This document shows positions 288 to 33,008 of a stretch of DNA of 37,654 nt, piece after piece; the stretch's first letter is position 1; each line of letters opens with the position of its first letter. A program made the translations under genes and the position numbers. The DNA comes from a virus. The DNA is taken from the IMG/VR virus record IMGVR_UViG_3300014774_000003, positions 1 through 37,654 of that record; one strand, written 5' to 3'. The notes under the pieces were generated by a model. The model ran no database searches. It saw only the letters and a program-made list of their open reading frames with translations, and was not told the origin of the DNA.

Positions 288-311
288 AGCACCCAACCGG
301 GTGCTTTTTTT
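288..311 (+). terminator. Intrinsic terminator upstream of the tail tube gene
   Basis: AGCACCC-AACC-GGGTGCT hairpin followed by a run of 7 T. Confidence 0.6.
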
Positions 312-338
312 ATGCCTAAAATTGAGGAGCACTCGCAA

Positions 339-803
339 ATGGCAGAATTACGCACGCAAGGGACAAACGTCTTTGCTTTTGATGGTACCGACATTACGCA
401 ACTTGTCTGTGTAACCGGTATCGACTTGGGAAGTGACAGTACTTCAAAAATTGAAACAACCTGTCTTGAAGAAACGAAATCCAAATCCTATATGCCGGGG
501 CTATCTGATCCGGGTGATGGCTCACTTTCAATTCGACTTGATCCAGAAAACGACTCACACCTAAAGCTTATTCAATGGGCAGAAAATCGCACCGAACTTG
601 AATTTTATATTGGTGCGAGTGATTCAGTTGCTCCGCCAACAGTAGCTACAAATGCTGTAGCTCTACCAACTGGCCGTTCATTCTGGTCATTTAAAGGCGC
701 ATTAACTCCAGCAGTGCCAACATTTGAAGCGGATTCCATTGTGGGCTACCAGTTCACTTTACAGCGTTCAACTGGTGTAACTCTAACTCCAGCAACTGTT
801 TAA
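339..803 (+). CDS. Major tail tube protein
   Basis: GAGGAG at 324..329 sits 9 nt before ATG 339. The track start at 312 abuts the terminator T-run and has no SD. The 154-aa product is flanked by terminators and sits immediately before the G/GT chaperone pair. Confidence 0.65.
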   Translation: MAELRTQGTNVFAFDGTDITQLVCVTGIDLGSDSTSKIETTCLEETKSKSYMPGLSDPGDGSLSIRLDPENDSHLKLIQWAENRTELEFYIGASDSVAPPTVATNAVALPTGRSFWSFKGALTPAVPTFEADSIVGYQFTLQRSTGVTLTPATV

Positions 804-806
804 TCC

Positions 807-835
807 AAAGCCCCTGTATTGGGGCTTTATTCTTT
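807..835 (+). terminator. Intrinsic terminator after the tail tube gene
   Basis: AAAGCCCC-TGTATT-GGGGCTTT hairpin followed by a T-rich tract. Confidence 0.65.
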
Positions 836-845
836 CTGGTGAATC

Positions 846-1331
846 ATGAAAAAATTAACTTTAAAAGACATTAAGTCTGGCGCACTAATGGGTAAGCCGG
901 AGCATGTGACAGTCCAAATCAAAGTTGCTGGTGAAGATGCAGAGTTTGATACGCATATTCTGCCATTTAGCTACAGCACAGCAGTAGCCCAAATGAAAGC
1001 CTATGGTGAAAACAAAGAGGCCTTAGCTGGTGTTTTGGCGAGTGTTATTTGTGATGAAAAAGGCCAACTCGCATTCACTGAAGATGAAATCCGCACCCAT
1101 TTTAACCAAGCTCTAGTAGATGCGCTTTGGTCAAAAATTGTGGATATTAACGTATTGGGAAAGCAACTGAACTCAACCAAGATGACGAAATCCTCATCGA
1201 AATCAGTATCGCGCTCGGCAAAACGTACAGCGAAATCGCAGACCTCCCATACAGAGAAATTAAAAAGTACACCGCCTACATCCGAAAATACGGAAGCCTC
1301 AACCTCGGAAGAAGATTCGAGCAAGAGCTAG
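846..1331 (+). CDS. Tail assembly chaperone G (zero-frame product)
   Basis: Lies between the tube and tape measure genes. Residues after the slippery site (codon 106 onward) are low-complexity S/T/K-rich. Confidence 0.7.
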   Translation: MKKLTLKDIKSGALMGKPEHVTVQIKVAGEDAEFDTHILPFSYSTAVAQMKAYGENKEALAGVLASVICDEKGQLAFTEDEIRTHFNQALVDALWSKIVDINVLGKQLNSTKMTKSSSKSVSRSAKRTAKSQTSHTEKLKSTPPTSENTEASTSEEDSSKS

Positions 1332-1462
1332 CAAGAATTCACCAGTCTATTTTAATGCTGAAAGGCGTTAAGAACGTGAAGCTGCACGACTTGATGACCC
1401 ATGAAGAAAAGCCAGTAGAAAAGAATCTTGAGGATTATCTGGTGGAGAATTTCGGGAAATAA
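846..1462 (+). CDS. Tail assembly chaperone GT fusion made by -1 programmed frameshift at 1157..1163
   Basis: The -1 frame is open from 1151 to TAA 1460..1462 (about 100 codons) with no usable start codon, and it encodes protein-like sequence (ATELNQDDEILIEISIALGKTYSEIADLPYREIKKYTAYIRKYG...). Predicted fusion is about 205 aa. Confidence 0.75.
1157..1163 (+). promoter_or_regulatory. Slippery heptamer G GGA AAG (-1 frameshift site)
   Basis: GGGAAAG is in X_XXY_YYZ phase with the 846 frame (codons GGA 1158, AAG 1161). This is the same heptamer used by lambda G/GT. Confidence 0.75.
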
Positions 1463-1489
1463 GAAATCAATTTAGATTGGTTTCTTTTT
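1463..1489 (+). terminator. Intrinsic terminator after GT
   Basis: GAAATCAAT-TTAG-ATTGGTTTC hairpin (9 bp including one G-U pair) followed by TTTTT. Confidence 0.5.
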
Positions 1490-1539
1490 CACCTGATTAT
1501 TAGTATCTTGGTCTGAATAATAAATATTCAGGATTGAGT

Positions 1540-2151
1540 ATGTGGCTTATATTAATAATTATTGTAGTGGTCATCGGTGCAATTTTCTTGGCAAGGAAAG
1601 CCAGCATTCCGGTGGAAAACAAGACTCAAGAATTTCTCAAGACCCAACAAAATAGAGGTAAAGAGGAAGTGAGCGGTAGAAGTTTACCACCACCATTCCC
1701 AATGGGGAGCACTAGAAAAAAGGATGCGAATAAGATTGCCCCTAAGAGAATTTTCCGACTTGATTATGATTGTGCGCATGATTTTGATAGCTATCCATTC
1801 GAAATTGTTGGTGAATCACACTACCAATCCAATATTGAGCGGTTTGCTGTAAAAAGAGAGGGCAAGGGTTGCTTTACCGAAGTAGAGGCAAAAATTATCA
1901 GGGATATTAATAACAGCCACGATAAAAACGCATGCAGGGTAGACATCAGCGGATTAACAGTTGGTTATTTCCCTCGCAATAATGCCGAGAGTTGGGTAAA
2001 ACTTTTGGGGCGCTTAAATATGCCTGATAACTCAGAAGTCTATGTTAGGGCTGTGATTGTTGGTGGTGGAAGCAAAGATCATAGCTTCGGGGTAAGATTG
2101 GATATACCATCTAGAGTTGCAAATTCTGCTAAATACATAAAAGAAGTTTAA
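1540..2151 (+). CDS. Membrane-anchored HIRAN-like domain protein (moron)
   Basis: N-terminal hydrophobic helix WLILIIIVVVIGAIFLA followed by RK. C-terminal FEIVGESHYQ ... IIRDINNSHDKNACRVDISGLTVGYFPRNNAE resembles the bacterial HIRAN signature (VGxxHYQ ... N-x-x-D-x-N-A ... GY). ATG 1540 is preferred over TTG 1534. Confidence 0.55.
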   Translation: MWLILIIIVVVIGAIFLARKASIPVENKTQEFLKTQQNRGKEEVSGRSLPPPFPMGSTRKKDANKIAPKRIFRLDYDCAHDFDSYPFEIVGESHYQSNIERFAVKREGKGCFTEVEAKIIRDINNSHDKNACRVDISGLTVGYFPRNNAESWVKLLGRLNMPDNSEVYVRAVIVGGGSKDHSFGVRLDIPSRVANSAKYIKEV

Positions 2152-2160
2152 GGTCCTTGT

Positions 2161-2481
2161 ATGAAAAAAATCATTTTATTGGCTTTGGTTATCGGTCTGG
2201 TTGGGTGTTCTGGTCAGCCAAAAATATCTGAAGAGAAAAAACAGCAAGTTGTAGCCCATTTTAAAGATGACAAGACAATAAAAGATTCGGTATGGGTATC
2301 CGCCTCAACCTTTAGAGTTGGTGTGCTGGATAATGGTTCAAGCAGGGATGGGCTAGCGCAATATGTTTGTCAGGAATTAAATGCATTAGATGTTCATGGT
2401 GTGACGGTTAAGGTAATAGATATCCAGAAACTTGTCTCTACAAACAAATGGATAGATTTAGGGCAAGCAAATTGCTCGTAA
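2161..2481 (+). CDS. Lipoprotein of unknown function (moron)
   Basis: Signal peptide MKKIILLALVIGLVG-C with lipobox LVGC. Starts 9 nt after the previous stop. Confidence 0.65.
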   Translation: MKKIILLALVIGLVGCSGQPKISEEKKQQVVAHFKDDKTIKDSVWVSASTFRVGVLDNGSSRDGLAQYVCQELNALDVHGVTVKVIDIQKLVSTNKWIDLGQANCS

Positions 2482-2496
2482 AGTCTCAAAATCAAT

Positions 2497-2519
2497 AACC
2501 GCCACTAGGCGGTTTTTTT
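2497..2519 (+). terminator. Intrinsic terminator closing the two-gene insert
   Basis: AACCGCC-ACTA-GGCGGTT hairpin followed by a T run. Confidence 0.75.
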
Positions 2520-2537
2520 ACGCCTAGAGGAAAAGTT

Positions 2538-5500
2538 ATGGCTGGCAAGTTAGGTGTTTTAACATTAGATTTAATTGCTCGTATCGGCCAATTTGTTGAG
2601 CCAATGAAGAATGCCGAAAGACAGACTAAGACTTCAGCAAGCAATATGGCGCGCGATTTCGAGGAGGCTGATAAAGGTATTTCCATGTCAGCAAAGAATA
2701 TCGGGCTTTCATTGGCAGGGGTTGCTGCATCCTATGTCTCTATCGACCGACTGATCAATACTCAACGCACTTTTGATAAGCTGAATGCAGGGTTAATAAC
2801 AGCAACTGGGTCAGCAGAAGGCGCGGCAGCAGCATTTGATTCTTTGCAGAAGTTTGCAAAAGAAACTCCTTATGGCTTGGAGCAGTCTGTAGGTGCCTTT
2901 ATTAAGCTTACAAACTTGGGGTTAAAGCCATCTGAAGCCGCACTAACATCATACGGCAATACTGCTGCCGCCATGGGTAAAGATCTTGATCAAATGATTG
3001 AGGCTGTTGCTGATGCTACCACTGGTGAGTTTGAGCGATTAAAAGAATTTGGTATTAAGGCCAGCCAAGAAAATGGCAAAGTGTCGCTGACGTTTAAAGG
3101 TCAAACCACCACCATTAGAAATAATGCCAAAGAGATTGAAAAATACCTTCTTGATTTAGGCAATGTGGACTTCGCTGGTGCTATGGAAAACCGCATGAAA
3201 ACCCTAGATGGGTCTATTGCAAACCTTGAGGATACAATTGATGGATTATTCCTAAAAGTATCGCAATCAGGAATTGGTGATGCGATTAAAGCCGGTGTTG
3301 ATGGGGCTAGTGAGTCACTGGAAACCCTAGGGGATAACCTAGATACGGTTGGTGATATTGCTTTGGTGGTAGGCGCTATATTTGCTGGAAGATATGCCTC
3401 TAGTATGGTTGGCAGTATTCAAAAAACAGTTGCTGCAAGCATTGAGCAAAAACAGGCATTAGTAGCTGAACAAGCCGAAAGCGTAAAACTACTTGGCGTT
3501 CAGGCGCAAAGAGCGCGCCAAAATGTGGCTTTAGCTTTAACCGAGGTGAATCTAGCTCGCGCAGACTTTAATAATGCCACTACGGCAGCAGCTCGCGCGG
3601 CTGCAACTCAGCGATTGACAGCAGCAAACATTGCTTTAGCTATTTCCGAGAAACAGGCTTCTATTGCGACAACTGCCTATACAGCAGCTACAGGTGCGGC
3701 AACCGTAGCCACAAGCCGACTTGCAGCAGCCAAAGCGCTCTTGCTTGGATTAACAGGCGGGTGGGTTGGGCTAGGCATTACTGTGGCTTCTGTGGCGGCA
3801 GGCTATTTAATGATGAGAGATGGCGCTGATGAGTCCACCAAGTCATTAAGAGAAAATAACGAGTCCGTTGATGAGGCGGTTAAGAAATACAAGGAGCTTG
3901 ATGATGTTAAGCGTCGCGCACAGCTTGTTTCTGAAAAAAATACACTTCAGGATCTAGCAAAGGAATACGATGAAGTTAATTCAAAACTAATCACCGCCAC
4001 TTACTCATTTAGTCGTCACAATGATATGACATCTGAGCAATCAAAACAGGTTAATGCTTTGATTGCTGAATACAAGAAAACAGGTGATATTGATCAATTC
4101 TCAGGAAAGATTAACGCTCTAAACTTCATTAGCCAAACTTCTAAGGACCGATTCAATACTTTAGGTGGGTCTGTAAAAGATGCTGGTAATGAATTTAAAA
4201 ACCAAAAGTCTTTTGTGGATCAGATGGCTCCAGCCGTTAAAGGGGTGGGTGACCAGGCTAAGCAGACTGCTGGCGAGGTTTCTGGTTTAAGCGCAGAGAT
4301 TCAGAAACTTCTCAACCTTAATGCCGAGGGGGCATCGAAGAGCAATTACTTAAACGAGCTCGTAAAGAGAAATATTAATCCAGAGCTTGCTGAAATGATG
4401 TATGAGGCGCGAAAGGCTTCAAATATAGCTGGTACGAGTGAAAAGCTAAATACGAAGGTATTGAATTCTGTGCTTGATCGCTGGAAGGCAGATCAGGGTC
4501 TGAATAAAACCCTTGAGGAACGTGCAAAAATTGAGGAAAAAAACAAGAAGCTTGTCGAGGCGCAAGGTAATGCAATGAAGGTGAATGCTTTGGTTGCATC
4601 TAACGCAGCTAAAGCAAACTACGCTGCACTAGAATCCGCTAAAGGACTACCAAAAGGCTTATTGTCTGCTGTAAATATGACTGAATCACCAAATAGCAAC
4701 ACCGCTAGAAGTAGTGCTGGCGCAAGAGGTGCATTCCAGTTCATGCCAAAAACTGCTGAGCGATTTAATGTTGATGTTAATAGTGTTAATTCCAGTGCAA
4801 AAGGTGCAGCCGAGTACCTTGATAAATTACTCAAAATGTTTGAAGGCAACCTTGAGAATGCTTTACGCGCCTACAACTGGGGCGAAGGCAACATGCAGAA
4901 CTATTTAAAATATGGCTCAGGCATGAAGGATGGTCAGAAGGGTTATTTTGCTGACAGGCCAATGCCAAGAGAAACGCGCGAATACTCTGGCAAAGTAATG
5001 GGCTATATGGGTGGCTCCAGCGGTGTTTCATTCACAGAGGATTATTCTTTTGAAGACTGGTTGAAGGAGCAAGAGCAATTTGCTATTGAGCGCGAAAAAC
5101 GTGAGAAGGAGATAGCTGAAAAGCAAAAAGAACTTGTGCTTGAGGTTGCCACCTATAGAGAGAAAGTCAATTCAGAACTTGCTGATAAGTTAGAGGAGAT
5201 TGATAAGGCTGGATTCGACAGTGCAAAAACTGCTGAATTGAAAGCCGAATACAAGAAACGAGCTGAGATTGATATTCAAGTTTCAGAAGCTGCACATAGC
5301 GAAAAGTTGGCTGGGTATTCGGACTATTTGAAATCAGAAGAGCAGCTTTTAAATGAAAGCTTTGCTCGTCGTCAGCGCAATCTTAAGCTTGACCTTAGTT
5401 TGACCACGGAGGAGTACACCATCGCCTCTATAGCTCTCGAAAATCAGCGCAAGAAAGAGGTTGAATCGCTCAGAAGGGATGAAAGGTTAGATGTTCTCGA

Positions 5501-6350
5501 GACTAAAAGAGACTGGATGGGTAAGGGGGAGTATGCCCGGGAATATTACGCATTAGTGCGTGAAGAAATTCTAGCAACATCAACATATTCTCCTGAAAAA
5601 AAAGAAGCCATGCTTCAGTATGCATCTTCTCAGCAAAATCGTGAAGAATCCTACGAGCGCGACAGCGCTATTGCAGATTACCGTGATGTGATGGGCTATG
5701 GAGAAAATCCGCTAGAGCGACAGTTTGAAGTTTTGCAAAAAATGCGCGAACTCGATCTATTGAACGAAGAAGCATACCAAAATGCAAAACTTGAACTACA
5801 AGCCAAGTCTACAGCGGGATACATGGAAGGAATGCTGGGTGGATTTGCTGCGCTGGTGGATGAAAACTCTAAAACCTATGCAGTGCTGTTTGCTGCTCAA
5901 AAAGCGTTTGCGGTAGCTCAGGCAATGCTGAACATTCCAGCGGCATACTCGAAAGCTTATGATGCGGTCGTTGGTACACCATTTGTTGGCCCATATATCG
6001 CACCTGCGGTTGGTGCGGCCGCAGCAGCCTTACAGGTGGCTCAGGCCGCAAGCATGAAGTCGGTCAATCTAACTGGTATGGCCCACGACGGTATCGATAA
6101 CATTCCAAGGGAAGGTACATGGCTGCTTGATGGTGGAGAGCGTGTTTTAAATCCTGAGCAAAATAAGGATTTAACTCGATACTTGAGTGAAGCCCGTGAA
6201 AGCAATTCATCACCGAACGTCAACCTCAACCCAAACTTCGTAATTGTTGATGAGCGTGAAAAGCTTGGGGATTACCTGTTTGGACCAGATGGCAAGAAAG
6301 CCTTTGTGAAATTTTTTAAACAGAACAAACGGGAATTAGGATTCGCATAA
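2538..6350 (+). CDS. Tail tape measure protein with internal lytic transglycosylase (SLT) domain
   Basis: 1270 aa with Ala-rich coiled coil and the hydrophobic segment GLTGGWVGLGITVASVAAGYLMM. SLT motifs NMTES (Glu codon 4683..4685), AGARGAFQFMPKTAERF and AYNWGEGN. Confidence 0.9.
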   Translation: MAGKLGVLTLDLIARIGQFVEPMKNAERQTKTSASNMARDFEEADKGISMSAKNIGLSLAGVAASYVSIDRLINTQRTFDKLNAGLITATGSAEGAAAAFDSLQKFAKETPYGLEQSVGAFIKLTNLGLKPSEAALTSYGNTAAAMGKDLDQMIEAVADATTGEFERLKEFGIKASQENGKVSLTFKGQTTTIRNNAKEIEKYLLDLGNVDFAGAMENRMKTLDGSIANLEDTIDGLFLKVSQSGIGDAIKAGVDGASESLETLGDNLDTVGDIALVVGAIFAGRYASSMVGSIQKTVAASIEQKQALVAEQAESVKLLGVQAQRARQNVALALTEVNLARADFNNATTAAARAAATQRLTAANIALAISEKQASIATTAYTAATGAATVATSRLAAAKALLLGLTGGWVGLGITVASVAAGYLMMRDGADESTKSLRENNESVDEAVKKYKELDDVKRRAQLVSEKNTLQDLAKEYDEVNSKLITATYSFSRHNDMTSEQSKQVNALIAEYKKTGDIDQFSGKINALNFISQTSKDRFNTLGGSVKDAGNEFKNQKSFVDQMAPAVKGVGDQAKQTAGEVSGLSAEIQKLLNLNAEGASKSNYLNELVKRNINPELAEMMYEARKASNIAGTSEKLNTKVLNSVLDRWKADQGLNKTLEERAKIEEKNKKLVEAQGNAMKVNALVASNAAKANYAALESAKGLPKGLLSAVNMTESPNSNTARSSAGARGAFQFMPKTAERFNVDVNSVNSSAKGAAEYLDKLLKMFEGNLENALRAYNWGEGNMQNYLKYGSGMKDGQKGYFADRPMPRETREYSGKVMGYMGGSSGVSFTEDYSFEDWLKEQEQFAIEREKREKEIAEKQKELVLEVATYREKVNSELADKLEEIDKAGFDSAKTAELKAEYKKRAEIDIQVSEAAHSEKLAGYSDYLKSEEQLLNESFARRQRNLKLDLSLTTEEYTIASIALENQRKKEVESLRRDERLDVLETKRDWMGKGEYAREYYALVREEILATSTYSPEKKEAMLQYASSQQNREESYERDSAIADYRDVMGYGENPLERQFEVLQKMRELDLLNEEAYQNAKLELQAKSTAGYMEGMLGGFAALVDENSKTYAVLFAAQKAFAVAQAMLNIPAAYSKAYDAVVGTPFVGPYIAPAVGAAAAALQVAQAASMKSVNLTGMAHDGIDNIPREGTWLLDGGERVLNPEQNKDLTRYLSEARESNSSPNVNLNPNFVIVDEREKLGDYLFGPDGKKAFVKFFKQNKRELGFA

Positions 6351-6392
6351 GCTCACTTCGGTGGGCTTTATTTTTATCAATTTGAGGACAAA

Positions 6393-12516: not shown

Positions 12517-13074
12517 ATGTCAAATGACTACTCATCTGACCCACCAGTAGCAACAGCAGGGCAACTTCTTGCCATCTCAGACAAGATTAATGATCTTGGA
12601 AAAAGTATGGATAAGTTGGCTGAACTACCCCAAAAGCTTGACCGCATGAATATGCAGTTAGAGCAAGTAAACAAGGAGCATCAACAAACACGGAGTGACT
12701 TAAGTCAAACCCGGGATAATCTGCAAGATGACTTAGATCGAGCCAAGTCAAACTTCAAAAGCGAGATCAAGCAGGTTCGAAATGAGATTGATCCAAAGTT
12801 CAAAGAAATGGATATGCAGATCAGGGTGTTAAGTGAAAGTAAAACAAAGATTGATAACACCACAAGTCTTGTGCGCTTTGGTGGTATTTTCTTGGCTGGC
12901 CTATTTGTAGTCGCTTGGAATACTCAAACGAGCAAAACAGACACGGTAAATACTCAAACCATGGCAAATAGCCAGTCCATTCAAGTCCTTGAAAAACAAT
13001 CCGACCAACTTTTAAGAACAGTTGAAGAAATCCGCAACAAACTTTATGAACGAAATATGAGAGAGGAAAAATGA
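12517..13074 (+). CDS. Coiled-coil membrane protein, possible lysis-associated (holin-like or regulator)
   Basis: AGGGGG SD precedes ATG 12517. The track start 12442 would read through the terminator hairpin. There is one hydrophobic helix, FGGIFLAGLFVVAW, about 135 aa in. ATGA-coupled to the endolysin gene. Confidence 0.4.
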   Translation: MSNDYSSDPPVATAGQLLAISDKINDLGKSMDKLAELPQKLDRMNMQLEQVNKEHQQTRSDLSQTRDNLQDDLDRAKSNFKSEIKQVRNEIDPKFKEMDMQIRVLSESKTKIDNTTSLVRFGGIFLAGLFVVAWNTQTSKTDTVNTQTMANSQSIQVLEKQSDQLLRTVEEIRNKLYERNMREEK

Positions 13075-13838
13075 AATTCTTACAAGAAAACGTGCTGAAG
13101 TATACCAGCGTTAAATGGCCCCTAATTGGGGCTTTTTTATTGGGTGTAATTCCTGTTTTACTGCAGGAAGGGATTAACACACAGCTTATCCCAGCTGAAT
13201 ACCATTCACTGATTTTAACCATTGTTTTGCCTGCGCTGGCTTACTTTGGGAAAAAGAAATATCAACCCGAATTACATCCCGAGCCAACACTTTTAGGCTT
13301 TGCAAAACTCCCGGTTGACTCGATCACTTTTGATGAAGCATTCCGACGGCTTATTGGCCATGAAGGTGGCTATACCACAGACCGACGCGATGCAGGCAAC
13401 TGGACCGGTGGCAAGGTGGGGGTGGGTGTATTAAAAGGGACTAAATATGGGATTGCTGCAAATACCTACCCGAATTTAGATATTAAAAACTTATCACTTG
13501 CTCAAGCCAAAGAGATCTACAAAAAAGACTGGTGGGATAAATTGGGCGGCAATGGTCTGCATTCTGCGATTACATTCCAGCTCTGGGATTTTGCGATTAA
13601 TGCCGGCAAGAAACGAGCGATTCAGGAATTGCAGCAAGCGGTTGGTGTAACTGCGGACGGTATCATTGGTCCTAAAACTATGGAAGCTGTGAATGCTCAA
13701 GACCTAAATGATGTGATTCTAACTTTGACTGCTGAGCGGTTAAGGTTTTATACCTCACTAAAAACATGGCCAACATGGGGCAAAGGCTGGACTAATCGTG
13801 TTGCTGATAACCTGAAATATGCAGCTCAAGATAATTAG
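13071..13838 (+). CDS. Endolysin: GH108 lysozyme plus PG_binding_3, with a two-helix N-terminal membrane extension
   Basis: GHEGGYTTDRRDAGNWTGG and GTKYGI (GH108). GVTADGIIGPKT ... WGKGWTNR (PG_binding_3). N-terminal helices WPLIGAFLLGVIPVLL and LILTIVLPALAYFG. Confidence 0.8.
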   Translation: MKFLQENVLKYTSVKWPLIGAFLLGVIPVLLQEGINTQLIPAEYHSLILTIVLPALAYFGKKKYQPELHPEPTLLGFAKLPVDSITFDEAFRRLIGHEGGYTTDRRDAGNWTGGKVGVGVLKGTKYGIAANTYPNLDIKNLSLAQAKEIYKKDWWDKLGGNGLHSAITFQLWDFAINAGKKRAIQELQQAVGVTADGIIGPKTMEAVNAQDLNDVILTLTAERLRFYTSLKTWPTWGKGWTNRVADNLKYAAQDN

Positions 13839-14009: not shown

Positions 14010-14996
14010 TTAATCCAACCTATTTGCAATCTCTGATGCAGTTGCATTGTAATAAATCATCAGGCTTCTTAAATCCTTATGCCCGATCATCCGCGCCAAA
14101 TCCAATACTTCCAATTTCTGAGCAAGCCTTGTGCATGCTTCATGTCTTGAGTCGTGAAAATGTAAATCCTCAATTTCACACTTATCTCGCAACTTTCTCC
14201 AAAGTGTATCAAAGCTCGAATCTTTCACCGTAAATACCTGATGACTGCCAACACCTTTCATAAGCTCAAGCAATTCAACAGCACGCTTGGACAGAGGTAC
14301 ATGTCGTTTTGTTCCATTCTTGGTTTCATTCAAAGTCACATATCTATTCTTTAAATAAACCCGATCCCAAGTCAGGCCGCGAATTTCACCAGCACGCATT
14401 GCAGTTTCAATCGCCAAAAGAAAAGCAATCATAATTTGCTGTGTAAAATTCTCGGGTGCCTGATCATCAAACTCAGCAGCCAGACAAAGCCTGTAAATTT
14501 CATCCTCCGATATACGTCTATCTCGATGTGCTGGCGGTGGTGGCATCTTTAAATCACTCATGGGTGAATCATAAACCCACTTCCATTCCGTGCGCGCTAC
14601 TGTAAACAAGGCTGACAGTATGTTGCCCTCACGTCGTACCGAGGCCGGCTTGACTGTTTTTAATCTGGTATCACGCCACACCACAAAATCATCAGTCGTA
14701 ATTTTAGCAATATGTTTTTTGGCAATCTTTGGGAAGTTTCTCTGGAATGCTCGGAATCTCTTAATCTCTGCATCACAGCCTTTGTGCTTTGGACACACTT
14801 CTTCTATGTATCTATCAATTGCACAATTTAATGTATAATCAGGAAGCTTTCCGCGTGATAACTCTCTTAATTCAGTTTCACGTTTTGATGCCCATGCGCG
14901 AGCCTGAGTCTTAGTGTCGAATGTCGCACTTTCCCGAGTACCATTCACACTAATCTCAACTCGCCAAGCATCACCCCTTTGTCTAAAGGTGGCCAT
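14010..14996 (-). CDS. int: Tyrosine integrase
   Basis: 328 aa. MATFRQRGDAWRVEISVNG N-terminal arm/SAM-like region. Catalytic boxes AGEIRGLTW, HFHDSRHEACTRL and GHKDLRSLMIYY. Confidence 0.9.
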   Translation of the reverse strand: MATFRQRGDAWRVEISVNGTRESATFDTKTQARAWASKRETELRELSRGKLPDYTLNCAIDRYIEEVCPKHKGCDAEIKRFRAFQRNFPKIAKKHIAKITTDDFVVWRDTRLKTVKPASVRREGNILSALFTVARTEWKWVYDSPMSDLKMPPPPAHRDRRISEDEIYRLCLAAEFDDQAPENFTQQIMIAFLLAIETAMRAGEIRGLTWDRVYLKNRYVTLNETKNGTKRHVPLSKRAVELLELMKGVGSHQVFTVKDSSFDTLWRKLRDKCEIEDLHFHDSRHEACTRLAQKLEVLDLARMIGHKDLRSLMIYYNATASEIANRLD

Positions 14997-21305: not shown

Positions 21306-22028
21306 TTACATTGATCCGCCCTTCCAGCAGATGCGACCTTCAATTTCTATTTTTTCTCTAATTTCTTCTAGTGACAGTATGATGTCTGGATACTGAACCT
21401 TGTCCGGATTGTCCGATCTGATTACCCAGTGCGTCACCATATTGATAAGGCGTTTCACATAATATTGCTCATCAATACACAGGAAATAAACCTTATTTGA
21501 TTTTGGTGTGTTGTCGTGTGGATTAACTAAAAGCACCTGACCATCTTCAATAGAAGGGTACATGCTTTCGCCTTTCGCATAGATCACACGCAGATCATCT
21601 GGATTAGGTAAGCCTTGCTCTCTAATCCACTGTCGACTAAATACGAGACCACCCTTAACCTCCACACTGTCTATGATAGAGCCACCGCCACATGAGCCAT
21701 AGATATCAAACTGAGGAACAAGAATATATTCATCAACGCTTGGCTTTTCACCTGGGTTTTCACCACCGACCACAACAAAGTCATTAAGGCTTCCAGACTG
21801 CTTCTTTATGTACTCTTTCCCATAGATCAGATAATCCACTGAGGTATTTAAAGCCTTCGCTACCTGAGCAATATATTTTGAGTTATCAGTCTCATTATTC
21901 TCAATTTTAGAAATAGCGGCTTGCGACACCTCTGACTTTTTAGCCAGTGCCGATTGTGACAATCCCAATCTAGTGCGTGCCTCTCTAACTCGATCACCAC
22001 AAGTTAAACCAACCATAAGAAGACCCAT
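21306..22028 (-). CDS. cI: CI-like repressor (XRE HTH plus S24 LexA-type autopeptidase)
   Basis: HTH LGLSQSALAKKSEVSQAAISKIE. S24 Ser in GESMYP and Lys in YYVKRL. Divergent from cro. Confidence 0.9.
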   Translation of the reverse strand: MGLLMVGLTCGDRVREARTRLGLSQSALAKKSEVSQAAISKIENNETDNSKYIAQVAKALNTSVDYLIYGKEYIKKQSGSLNDFVVVGGENPGEKPSVDEYILVPQFDIYGSCGGGSIIDSVEVKGGLVFSRQWIREQGLPNPDDLRVIYAKGESMYPSIEDGQVLLVNPHDNTPKSNKVYFLCIDEQYYVKRLINMVTHWVIRSDNPDKVQYPDIILSLEEIREKIEIEGRICWKGGSM

Positions 22029-31325: not shown

Positions 31326-33008
31326 ATGACATCACTCAATTGGTCCACAGCGTGTCCCGATTGGGAGCAAAAAATTGCAAAAGGGCAGTCACTCATGCCA
31401 TGCAAGCCATTATTCCCAGAAGAAGCGGAAATGGCATTGGATGTTTTTAAGAGTTTGGTTGTGACGGATGTGATTGGTCAGCCAACCATGGGTGAAATCA
31501 CCCGGCCTTGGGTATTTGAATTTGTGGCCTCAATCTTTGGTGCTTATAGCGAGGATGAGAGTCGACGCTTAATTCGTGAATTCTTCCTATTAATCCCGAA
31601 GAAAAACTCTAAATCAACACTGGCTGCATTCATTATGTTGACAGCGCTGATCATGAATGACCGCGGATCTGCTGAGTTGATTATTCTCGCGCCCACAAAA
31701 GAGGTCGCAGACAATAGTTTTATTCCAATTCGGGATGCGATTAAAGCGGATGAAGAATTAAGCGCACTGCTTAATATTTCCGAGCACACTAAAACAATCA
31801 CACACCGATCAACCAACGCCACCCTAAAGGTGGTTGCTGCTGAATCAAACACGGTGGGCGGTAAAAAAGCTTCGTGGATTCTGATTGATGAATTGCACTT
31901 GTTCCAAAAGAACGCAGGTGCGGCCAGTATGTTTCGTGAAGCGACCGGTGGTCTGGCATCACGTCCAGAGGGTTGCATTATCTACCTGACAACTCAGGCC
32001 AATGAGCAGCCATGTGGTGTATTTAAGCAAAAATTAGATTATGCCCGTGATATTCGTGATGGGATTAAGCAGAACAATAAGTTTCTACCTTTGATTTACG
32101 AGTTCCCAAAGCAAATGATTGAGGATGGGGAGCATCTTAAAAAAGAGAACTTCCATATACCCAACCCAAACTACGGCACCTCAGTCGATCCAGTTCAGCT
32201 TGAAGATGATTTTGAGCAGTCGCGCGATGGTGAGGAATCGGACTTTCGAGATTTTCTAGCCAAGCGGCTTAATGTTGAGATTGGTATTAATCTTCGCGCC
32301 AACCGTTGGGCAGGTGCTGAATATTGGCTGCAGCAATCCAAAGAATTCACCTTGGATAAACTAATCGAGCAATCAGACGTTATTACCTGCGGTATTGATG
32401 GTGGTGGCCTAGATGACTTACTTGGATTTGCCGTACTTGGTCGGCATAACAAAAGCCGTAAATGGTGGCTCTGGAATCATGCCTGGTGCAATAAAACTGC
32501 AGTCGAGAGACGCAAAGAGAATGCGCCAAAGTACGCTGACTATGAAAAGGAAAAAAGCCTAACTATTGTTGAGCGCATCGGCGATGACATTGATGAACTC
32601 GCAGCAATCGCAAAGAAATGTTTTGACTCGGGCAAGCTCGATAAGATCGGACTAGATCCATTGGGTTTAGGTGGTCTTTTAGATGGCTTACTTGATGCCG
32701 GTATTCCTGAAGACAAGCTGATTGCAGTAGCTCAGGGCTTTAAGTTGATGGGCTACATCCTCACCACAGAACGAAAATTAGCTGAAGGCAATCTTTACCA
32801 TGCTGGCCAAAGCTTAATGACTTGGTGTGTCGGTAATGCACGTGCAGTCATCAAGGGTAACGGCATGATGATCAGCAAACAGGAATCGGGTGTCGGGAAG
32901 ATTGACCCACTAATTGCTACGTTTAATGCGGTGGCCCTGATGAGTATGAACCCAGAGTCAGAACAAAAAGATATTTCTGAATTTTTAAATAACCCTTTGA
33001 GCACATAA
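31326..33008 (+). CDS. terL: Terminase large subunit (Terminase_1)
   Basis: 560 aa with a P-loop-like IPKKNSKST. Positioned between terS and the portal gene. Confidence 0.9.
   Translation: MTSLNWSTACPDWEQKIAKGQSLMPCKPLFPEEAEMALDVFKSLVVTDVIGQPTMGEITRPWVFEFVASIFGAYSEDESRRLIREFFLLIPKKNSKSTLAAFIMLTALIMNDRGSAELIILAPTKEVADNSFIPIRDAIKADEELSALLNISEHTKTITHRSTNATLKVVAAESNTVGGKKASWILIDELHLFQKNAGAASMFREATGGLASRPEGCIIYLTTQANEQPCGVFKQKLDYARDIRDGIKQNNKFLPLIYEFPKQMIEDGEHLKKENFHIPNPNYGTSVDPVQLEDDFEQSRDGEESDFRDFLAKRLNVEIGINLRANRWAGAEYWLQQSKEFTLDKLIEQSDVITCGIDGGGLDDLLGFAVLGRHNKSRKWWLWNHAWCNKTAVERRKENAPKYADYEKEKSLTIVERIGDDIDELAAIAKKCFDSGKLDKIGLDPLGLGGLLDGLLDAGIPEDKLIAVAQGFKLMGYILTTERKLAEGNLYHAGQSLMTWCVGNARAVIKGNGMMISKQESGVGKIDPLIATFNAVALMSMNPESEQKDISEFLNNPLST

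Follow-up and report, generated by a model that had tools for sequence, protein, structure and literature searches.

Positions 1463-2519 of the IMG/VR virus record IMGVR_UViG_3300014774_000003, which we analyzed as one stretch of 37,654 nucleotides (the window), are best read as a moron, i.e. an accessory transcription unit, inserted between the gene for the GT tail assembly chaperone and that for the tape measure protein (TMP). The unit contains two genes. Judged from its sequence and its structural model, gene 1 encodes a HIRAN domain protein anchored by a transmembrane (TM) helix, an architecture that we call TM-HIRAN, and gene 2 encodes a predicted lipoprotein. The hotspot in which the genes are located, the HIRAN identity, the anchoring, and the existence of copies that are antisense to late operons or part of a lysogeny module together argue for an accessory role that the prophage exerts at the boundary of the cell. 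We see about even chances that the class of this function is the prophage-expressed exclusion of incoming DNA, and are less confident about the exact mechanism. With regard to known kinds of elements, the unit belongs with the morons located between chaperone and TMP genes, and its products probably serve exclusion. As far as the literature that we searched is concerned, its HIRAN-based variant and the recurrent linkage of TM-HIRAN to TMP genes are undescribed.

The unit displays the anatomy of a moron: a conserved terminator is followed by a conserved -10-like element, the cargo genes, and a second conserved terminator. A preliminary description, made from the DNA letters, had placed a two-gene unit between the GT chaperone and the tape measure, and every sequence feature that it listed is present and in place:

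1461-1486 (to 1490 with the T-run), plus strand: left-border hairpin resembling an intrinsic terminator, 11 bp, AT-rich, followed by a T-run
1500-1510, plus strand: conserved element TTAGTATCTTG, which contains the -10-like TAGTAT, recognized by its invariance among relatives
1507-1538, plus strand: 5'-leader RNA hairpin with its 3' arm over the Shine-Dalgarno region (-8.8 kcal/mol, z = -2.2)
1540-2151, plus strand: gene 1, TM-HIRAN protein of 203 amino acids (aa)
1543-1602 (residues 2-21 of gene 1): TM helix
Residues ~23-64 of gene 1: disordered linker, basic and Pro-rich
Residues ~66-203 of gene 1: HIRAN domain
2161-2481, plus strand: gene 2, lipoprotein of 106 aa
2497-2514 (to 2521 with the T-run), plus strand: right-border intrinsic terminator, 7-bp GC-rich stem followed by T7

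A search with the chaperone protein yielded 19 related loci, 17 from IMG/VR contigs and two from Acinetobacter lwoffii genomes; an A. schindleri locus (L001), which came from the look-up of a gene 1 homolog, was counted apart from these 19. The unit had initially been regarded as a singular break of an otherwise conserved gene adjacency. This view had to be given up: the genes for the tail assembly chaperone (TAC; 63-99% identity) and TMP are separated at the same site in 19 of 19 relatives, by 647-3513 bp of differing cargo, and no empty site with GT contiguous with TMP was found among them. The GT-TMP junction is a lineage-wide moron hotspot with hypervariable cargo. Genes 1 and 2 occur together only in the window and in L011. 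In L001 and L023, gene 1 is accompanied by genes for other secreted proteins, and a gene 2-like (G2-type) gene is located 3' of a gene for a 291-aa DEDDh exonuclease in L012. The cargo consists of single lipoproteins in L009, L024, and others, while modules of Arc plus an AntA, KilA-N, or Bro-N antirepressor are present in L008, L010, L013, L014, L016, and L022. These modules resemble P22 immI and lie 5' of the lipoprotein gene, with a minus-strand Arc-family repressor, a small ribbon-helix-helix protein, and the AntA/KilA-N/Bro-N antirepressor (L008:6614-8101; L010:6627-8447; L014:6619-8082). The last gene before TMP encodes a lipoprotein or secreted protein in ~20 of 21 loci, irrespective of the presence of HIRAN, and these proteins belong to many unrelated families. 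The presence, absence, and unrelated replacement of cargo vary even among phages with 94-99% identical chaperones. Since the cargo differs in nearly every relative, it is accessory and not a tail-assembly component.

The DNA of the lipoprotein genes suggests how this variation came about. We compared positions 2161-2211 of the window with the corresponding sequences of six other loci (starting at L023:7316, L010:8521, L017:6689, L008:8728, L018:2146, and L001:8622). The DNA encoding the signal peptides is 73-84% identical among otherwise unrelated lipoproteins, and the identity falls to a random level of 24-33% just 3' of the lipobox Cys codon. Because of this sharp drop, the cargo appears to be shuffled by recombination in the signal-peptide DNA and in the conserved borders, and the signal-peptide sequence seems to serve as a recombination joint by which mature domains are swapped. 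The type of lipoprotein showed no consistent relation to the type of the TMP N-terminus; for example, a 163-aa protein was found with both TMP types.

The identification of gene 1 relies on profile searches, a structural model, and conserved residues. The Pfam HIRAN family (PF08797) was matched by 41 of 41 aligned family members at E <= 0.01 (best value 2.4e-9), many homologs carry a precomputed PF08797 match, and several of them are named HIRAN domain-containing at NCBI. Compared with the solved HLTF HIRAN structures, the profile of the gene 1 family reached 5.7e-7. The AlphaFold2 (AF2) model of gene 1 has a mean predicted local distance difference test (pLDDT) score of 80.8, with values >90 in the HIRAN domain. 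Foldseek searches of the PDB with this model returned HIRAN structures, either of HLTF or of lp_0118, at all of ranks 1-16 (probability 0.99-1.00; TM-score on target 0.38-0.53). In the Pfam scan at E <= 1, HIRAN was the only family matched by gene 1, and the NCBIfam scan returned nothing relevant. The TM helix is preceded by no charge and followed by Arg and Lys residues, and by the positive-inside rule the HIRAN domain is therefore predicted to reside at the inner membrane on its cytoplasmic side, with only 1-2 residues of the protein in the periplasm. Taken together, gene 1 encodes, by sequence and model, a genuine membrane-anchored HIRAN protein, as had been suspected from its TM helix and a HIRAN-like signature. 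The preliminary description had named as its own counter-case two conserved tail-assembly components lacking any HIRAN match; what we found is a HIRAN match and cargo that differs between relatives.

In the HIRAN domain of HLTF, D94 reads the 3'-OH and the terminal bases are held by a clamp of Y72 and Y93; N90 and N91 also belong to this 3'-end pocket (PMC5773155). In the alignment of the 41 family members, D128, N125, and Y95 of gene 1 are invariant. D128 occupies the position of HLTF D94, and the NNxYDKNA motif around this Asp is kept; in the profile match, HLTF DPNNPYDKNAIKV (DPNNPYDKNA) is aligned with the family motif epnNsyDknA. Y95, for which there is no direct alignment with HLTF, may be the counterpart of Y72. 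Gene 1 is thereby predicted to bind DNA 3' ends. Most bacterial HIRAN domains are devoid of the HLTF Phe142 that is needed for duplex binding, which suggests binding of single-stranded DNA (ssDNA; PMC8262856). DNA 3' ends are also consistent as a target because the same slot of the hotspot holds a 3'-5' exonuclease in some relatives. This 291-aa enzyme is assigned to RNase_T in Pfam and to the candidate system PDC-S48 in PADLOC (4.7e-30), is of the DnaQ type, and has a BRCT-like C-terminal part. It occupies the first cargo slot, followed by a G2-family lipoprotein, at L012:6694-7569, L101:3124-3996, and L103-L106:3124-3999. The exonuclease is hence an alternative to the HIRAN gene at this place, and it acts on DNA 3' ends too.

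Membrane-anchored HIRAN proteins are not restricted to the relatives of this phage. The family profile matched 6362 representative clusters at E <= 1e-3. Among the top 147 of these clusters, a TM helix is located at the N-terminus in 58 and at the C-terminus in ~15, and since such helices recur at either terminus, membrane tethering is, as far as can be predicted from the proteins, a recurrent and selected trait of the family. A profile-based scan of viral contigs provided 68 HIRAN loci. By a strict motif count, at least 12 of 33 loci whose HIRAN gene encodes an N-terminal TM helix have a TMP gene as its neighbor, and the actual number is probably nearer 20; for other HIRAN versions, this applies to only 2-3 of 35 loci. 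This association spans GC contents of 0.38-0.59 and several families of tail modules. For instance, L078 (GC 0.59) contains TTP_11, TAC_13, TM-HIRAN, and TMP in this order, and L073 (GC 0.52) contains Phage_tail_2, TAC_11, TM-HIRAN, a 304-aa gene, and TMP_3. In both loci the TM-HIRAN gene is located between TAC and TMP, antisense to the late operon (L073:4875-5330; L078:4635-5339) and must therefore have a promoter of its own. In L057, it is found just 3' of TMP. A different location was observed in the Streptococcus suis prophage Javan584, where a HIRAN gene with two TM segments (Javan584_0002) is flanked by an integrase and a CI-like regulator on either side, all on the same strand. Its TM segments follow an 80-residue N-terminal region, and it resembles gene 1 only marginally (tblastn E ~0.7), within the HIRAN core. 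The antisense copies in L073 and L078 and the lysogeny-module gene of Javan584 lend indirect support to the earlier proposal that the unit is expressed independently of the late operon.

A tblastn search of phage records with gene 1 gave only two matches at E <= 1e-3. With the family consensus at E <= 1, marginal HIRAN matches were obtained in streptococcal, Xanthomonas, and Pseudomonas phages, which are leads only. Nostoc phage Nsp-JY10 has a soluble homolog beside an XRE repressor. In Streptococcus phage Javan362, the gene for a HIRAN protein of 199 aa that shows no clear TM helix (L107:3635-4231) is again in a moron position of a structural operon, between the large terminase and portal genes and next to a putative antirepressor. 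On the chromosome of A. oleivorans/calcoaceticus, TM-HIRAN is part of a four-gene islet (6732-8862 in L002-L005) that is composed of a 246-aa gene, a 159-aa gene, TM-HIRAN of 210-212 aa, and a 78-aa lipoprotein gene overlapping the HIRAN stop; the two upstream genes (246 and 159 aa) gave no family matches, and in L004 a prophage is integrated directly beside the islet. Finally, L044:3126-6491 contains a 148-aa TM-HIRAN gene outside any tail context, with a gene for a 93-aa secreted protein downstream. The two open reading frames upstream of it look kinase-like and PP2C-phosphatase-like, by eye only.

Gene 2 had been described as a lipoprotein with the lipobox LVGC, and this is borne out. Its N-terminus, MKKIILLALVIGLVGC, constitutes a signal peptide with the lipobox LVGC around Cys16 (2206-2208), which fits the pattern [LVI][ASTVI][GAS]C, and Cys16 is invariant in 18 homologs. 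The residue at position +2 is Ser, which in lipoproteins suggests sorting to the outer membrane, and the product is predicted to be periplasmic or located in the outer membrane. Two further Cys residues, C70 and C105, are invariant in the mature domain, for which the AF2 model (pLDDT 86.3) predicts a small alpha/beta fold. Gene 2 belongs to phrog_7191 (1e-21), a PHROG of unknown function. Foldseek searches of PDB and BFVD returned only generic alpha/beta folds (4jm1, FliF RBM-like) and one unannotated phage lipoprotein, and no functional assignment was obtained from Pfam, NCBIfam, PADLOC, or the PDB and BFVD searches. A Pfam match to FtsJ is below threshold and spurious.

Are the two genes a functional pair, as the preliminary description had assumed? 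They are only 9 nt apart in the window, and an obligate two-component exclusion or defense machine, consisting of TM-HIRAN and a lipoprotein across the envelope, would account for the presence of a small secreted or lipoprotein gene directly 3' of the HIRAN gene in 22 of 40 loci with an N-terminal TM helix, compared to 1 of 34 loci with soluble HIRAN. Such an arrangement also exists outside the hotspot, since the 78-aa lipoprotein gene of the A. oleivorans islet overlaps the HIRAN stop by 8 nt (L002-L005) and the HIRAN gene of L044 likewise precedes a gene for a small secreted protein. In addition, a very divergent HIRAN gene (28% identity) is again followed by a G2 homolog in L064. But the count of 22 out of 40 is inflated by shared ancestry and by the constant lipoprotein of the hotspot, which is last before TMP with or without HIRAN. 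Moreover, the partners differ from locus to locus: besides the 106-aa product of gene 2, TM-HIRAN is followed by at least five unrelated secreted proteins (78, 93, 139, 179, and 213 aa), all of these partners being mutually unrelated, and no secreted neighbor is present in L029-31, L073, L078, and others. Conversely, G2-type lipoprotein genes are located 3' of the DEDDh exonuclease gene more often than of HIRAN (L012, L101, L103-L106), and in L102 such a gene stands apparently alone before TMP on a contig that ends 316 nt upstream. Direct contact between the HIRAN domain, predicted to be cytoplasmic, and the gene 2 product, predicted to be periplasmic or in the outer membrane, is unlikely for this very reason. 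Gene 1 would expose no more than one or two residues to the periplasm. Each gene recurs without the other, so that they do not form a dedicated pair, and we consider the obligate two-component machine unlikely.

Both borders of the unit are well conserved. The left hairpin has a predicted stability of -8.8 kcal/mol (z = -2.5). Across 14 relatives, 99.4% of the alignment cells in its stem are paired and three pairs show compensatory changes; since pairing is kept by double changes, the hairpin is a selected structure. A scanner for consensus terminators did not call it, as it has fewer than three G-C pairs. The right hairpin was called by the scanner (-11.4 kcal/mol, z = -3.5) and is kept in almost all relatives, partly as alternative, compensated stems; 3' of it follows the invariant TTTACGCCTAGAGGAAAAGTT-ATG of TMP, i.e. 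its ribosome-binding site and start. The terminators that had been noted at either end of the insert are thus present, stable, and conserved. However, terminator-like hairpins with T-runs are also located 3' of other late genes (288-305, 807-828, 6349-6368). Such bracketing therefore does not single the cassette out, and since hairpins stand between many late genes, the late operon must be read through them; presumably, it depends on antitermination or leaky termination.

A promoter of the unit itself had also been proposed. Compared to the consensus, the proposed -35 (TTGGTT) matches at three of six and the -10 (TAGTAT) at four of six positions, i.e. 7 of 12 in total with an 18-nt spacer, and the scanner made no call. 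The sequence TTGGTT was rejected as a conserved -35, because it is the descending arm of the left terminator, covaries with the ascending arm, and is replaced by unrelated sequence where the upstream hairpin differs. The -10 region, in contrast, is conserved. The 10-mer TTAGTATCTT, which contains it, is invariant in the 14 aligned relatives and followed by G or A. TAGTATCTT occurs exactly, with one copy per locus, in 19 related loci (L001, L006-L021, L023-L024) and is absent from L022, the most distant relative. In the window, the element occurs only once. It is always located ~13 nt 3' of the terminator hairpin and 25-35 nt 5' of the first plus-strand cargo gene, and in those loci with an Arc/antirepressor module inserted upstream it follows a different, GC-rich hairpin. 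Based on this conservation, TTAGTATCTTG is probably the -10 of the moron promoter.

The leader between this element and the start codon contains a perfect 7-bp inverted repeat (1513-1531), which had been reported before. The repeat exists as described, but it is the core of the longer RNA hairpin at 1507-1538. It was dismissed as an operator: only the window and L023 have it in perfect form, it is degenerate in L011 as well as in L001, and RNA hairpins occluding the Shine-Dalgarno sequence precede all cargo variants of the relatives except one, including cargo that starts with the lipoprotein gene. As in the window, these hairpins are found 3' of the -10-like element and 5' of the start codon, and their 3' arm is the purine-rich Shine-Dalgarno sequence. 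Leader hairpins were likewise predicted before TM-HIRAN genes of distant loci, with z values between -2.5 and -6.3 in 11 of 13 cases (leaders of L002, L025, L027, L029, L037, L040, L041, L044, L047, L049, L052, and L068); these loci comprise very different phages and one chromosomal copy. The leader hairpin suggests translational damping by sequestration of the Shine-Dalgarno sequence, or stabilization of the 5' end.

The closest counterpart in terms of position is gene 15 of phage HK97, the first moron described, which is located at the same chaperone-TMP junction (Juhala et al. 2000; Cumby et al. 2012; PMC3594210). The class of morons is defined by a promoter and a terminator of their own (PMC3594210). 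The prophage expresses gp15, a small superinfection-exclusion protein that inserts into the inner membrane with its N-terminal helix; gp15 prevents the injection of genomes, with a specificity that was mapped to the tail region of the phage that infects (PMC3594210). The unit of the window shares with it the junction, the accessory nature, and the N-terminal membrane helix. In contrast, gp15 is YebO-like, has no DNA-binding domain, and shows no sequence relationship to gene 1; searches of Pfam (E <= 1) and NCBIfam gave no indication of homology between gene 1 and gp15/YebO. The window unit also differs by a predicted cytoplasmic HIRAN domain of ~135 residues and by its second gene.

With regard to architecture, gene 1 resembles thaL (for transmembrane HIRAN protein associated with lysogeny), a gene for a protein with TM and HIRAN that is annotated in the lysogeny module of a pneumococcal prophage, where its function is unpublished (PMC12637031). 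Both are accessory genes of temperate phages that combine one or more TM segments with a HIRAN domain. The streptococcal genes are part of the lysogeny module, whereas gene 1 is located in the tail operon, away from integrase and repressor. This likeness is one of architecture. The earlier statement that no characterized system has the composition of the cassette is therefore true, but the prophage architecture of TM plus HIRAN had already been named thaL (PMC12637031). The fold of gene 1 is common to the HIRAN domains of HLTF/Rad5 (PF08797; 4S0N, 4XZF, 2MZN) and the stand-alone protein lp_0118 (3K2Y), and the NNxYDKNA motif, including the Asp that reads the 3'-OH, is shared with HLTF (PMC5773155). 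HLTF is a nuclear SWI/SNF-RING fork remodeler; the domain of the window stands alone, membrane-tethered and phage-encoded, and its family has an extra conserved N-terminal beta/alpha segment (residues 66-110) with a VGESHYQ motif.

Bacterial HIRAN domains also occur in a proposed anti-phage context, namely the PADLOC candidate system PDC-M03, which combines a HipA-like kinase with HIRAN, and the HipL/HipN kinase systems, in which HIRAN domains were proposed to be sensors of phage DNA ends (PMC8262856). The window cassette differs from both in that it has no kinase partner or HipS-like domain and carries a TM anchor instead. Gene 2, as a small phage lipoprotein beside tail genes, resembles the prophage exclusion lipoproteins Cor (phi80/N15/HK022), Llp (T5), and Ltp (TP-J34), and the lipoproteins of the hotspot are hypervariable, as expected under arms-race selection.

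Based on these comparisons, the exclusion of incoming DNA could proceed as follows. Both genes would be expressed from the prophage, off the conserved -10-like element. Translation would be damped by the leader hairpin, so that the lysogen would make little TM-HIRAN. At the inner membrane, on its cytoplasmic side, this protein would bind the 3' end of entering linear DNA, and the bound DNA may then be blocked in its entry, circularization, or replication, or become exposed to nucleases. Independently of it, the product of gene 2 would work in the envelope, much as Cor, Llp, or Ltp do. Different cargo would be swapped between the borders of the hotspot by recombination, including recombination inside the signal-peptide DNA of the lipoprotein genes. 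We infer both the expression of the cassette in the lysogen and its exclusion phenotype.

Several observations weigh against this reading. The unit is oriented in the sense direction within the late operon, and read-through in the late lytic phase could equally account for its expression. Judged by the consensus, the promoter is weak, its -35 is not conserved, and the conserved 10-mer could be something other than a -10. The window copy of gene 1 by itself scores 20.4 bits against PF08797 (E = 4.6e-4), i.e. under the gathering threshold of 24.7, and the equivalent of HLTF Y93 is a His (H127), while most family members have a Tyr at this position. Its PADLOC match, to the HIRAN component PDC-M03B, is weak (E = 3e-3), and the HipA partner is absent. 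Gene 1 contains no enzymatic or effector domain, which leaves unexplained how the binding of an end would stop an infection. For gene 2, PHROG and the PDB and BFVD fold searches revealed no similarity to Cor, Llp, or Ltp beyond the signal peptide: the PHROG match to Cor covers residues 1-22 only (E = 0.009).

Alternatively, the cassette might act by abortive infection. In this case, the replication or packaging intermediates of a phage would be sensed by the HIRAN domain through their free DNA 3' ends, the TM helices would cluster and thereby permeabilize the inner membrane, and the cell would die before progeny is made. Gene 1 has indeed only the two parts that such a sensor-effector needs, a DNA-end sensor and a membrane helix, and anchoring at either terminus is widespread in the family. 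The hairpins sequestering the Shine-Dalgarno sequence suggest that low expression is needed, as for a toxic protein, and sensing of phage DNA ends is the role proposed for HIRAN in HipL/HipN (PMC8262856). Nevertheless, one TM helix with hardly any residues in the periplasm makes a minimal effector, no oligomerization motif is present, and toxicity is unsupported. In addition, replication of the induced phage itself would trigger the system, the gene being located in its own late operon. We therefore regard this explanation as rather improbable.

Instead of phage genomes, the tethered HIRAN domain might capture the 3' end of ssDNA that enters by the channel for competence or conjugation, which would lessen those recombination events that can delete the prophage (chromosomal curing). 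During transformation, ssDNA enters with its 3' end leading, which would suit such a block. The suggested preference of bacterial HIRAN domains for ssDNA (PMC8262856) also fits, and the hosts of TM-HIRAN prophages include the naturally transformable Acinetobacter and streptococci, the pneumococcus too (PMC12637031). Interference of prophages with competence is documented (PMC12637031). Yet direct support is missing, and thaL was not assayed in that study (PMC12637031); TM-HIRAN is also present in many high-GC viral contigs of unidentified host, and its strong positional link to TMP genes fits the injection of phage DNA better. A block of transformation or conjugation thus appears quite improbable.

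Lastly, a function of the two genes as late genes in lytic growth, be it in the tethering or protection of the phage's own DNA ends, in the tail or TMP, or in lysis, would agree with the sense orientation, with an operon that is read through the hairpins between many of its genes anyway, and with the secreted or lipoprotein gene before TMP in nearly all relatives, but it is very improbable and the least compatible of the rival explanations, given the variable presence and unrelated replacement of cargo among phages with nearly identical chaperones (94-99%), the antisense copies in L073 and L078, the lysogeny-module position in Javan584, and the chromosomal copies outside prophages.

The window as a whole (1-37654) is probably a complete, circularly permuted genome of a temperate siphophage. 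Its temperate markers are a tyrosine integrase and a CI-like repressor with helix-turn-helix (HTH) and S24 domains, and the tail genes come first, followed by endolysin, integrase, early genes, TerL, and head genes. A KilAC antirepressor and RecT are also encoded, RecT and the CI-like repressor being among the early genes 3' of the integrase. Homologs indicate Acinetobacter as the host genus, including A. lwoffii and A. schindleri. The genes outside the cassette are as follows:

339-803: tail tube protein (TTP; PF16460, 1.2e-43)
846-1331, plus strand: tail assembly chaperone G (PF16459 Phage_TAC_13, 1.9e-22; phrog_1749, 9e-30)
1157-1163, plus strand: -1 frameshift site GGGAAAG, with the T extension of GT at 1157-1462, ending at TAA 1460-1462
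2538-6350, plus strand: TMP, 1270 aa (PF20155 TMP_3, 4.3e-12; SLT, 1.1e-15)
~13071-13838: endolysin
14010-14996, minus strand: tyrosine integrase
21306-22028, minus strand: CI-like HTH/S24 repressor
31326-33008: TerL, with head and connector genes thereafter to the window end, continuing into 84-269

GGGAAAG is a lambda-type heptamer whose X XXY YYZ register agrees with the frame of G, and the -1 frame contains 101 open codons before the TAA at 1460-1462. Judged by heptamer and open frame, the GT frameshift in the window is real. The GC content is 0.36-0.42 across 1351-2550, compared to 0.41-0.46 in the flanks, a small difference. When positions 300-4000 were compared with phage records in a distant blastn search, the only matches were to the 5' region of TMP in unrelated phages, and no close isolate was detected.

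With its invariant borders and swappable cargo, the hotspot offers a site at which additional genes for exclusion or defense could be sought in Acinetobacter prophages. The TM-HIRAN architecture itself is recurrent: it was found beside TMP in unrelated tail modules and in a streptococcal lysogeny module, and the HIRAN family comprises 6362 profile-matching clusters. The proteins that exclude DNA at its entry, such as HK97 gp15, P22 SieA, and T4 Imm, are poorly understood mechanistically, and to our knowledge none with a recognizable DNA-binding domain has been reported. A defined recognition domain for the 3'-OH end, joined to a membrane anchor and located in the classic position of an exclusion moron, provides a testable hypothesis of DNA interception, which would bear on the function of the named thaL genes as well. 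It is conceivable, if doubtful, that membrane-tethered HIRAN proteins make up a widespread class of entry-gate immunity that seizes the leading 3'-OH end of any linear DNA crossing the inner membrane. If true, this class would include the protein of the Acinetobacter phage, ThaL of streptococci, and related clusters in the thousands, and its targets would be phage genomes passing through the tape-measure channel or ssDNA from transformation or conjugation. The placement beside TMP genes would then reflect the co-inheritance of a gate blocker with the injection apparatus that decides on sensitivity.

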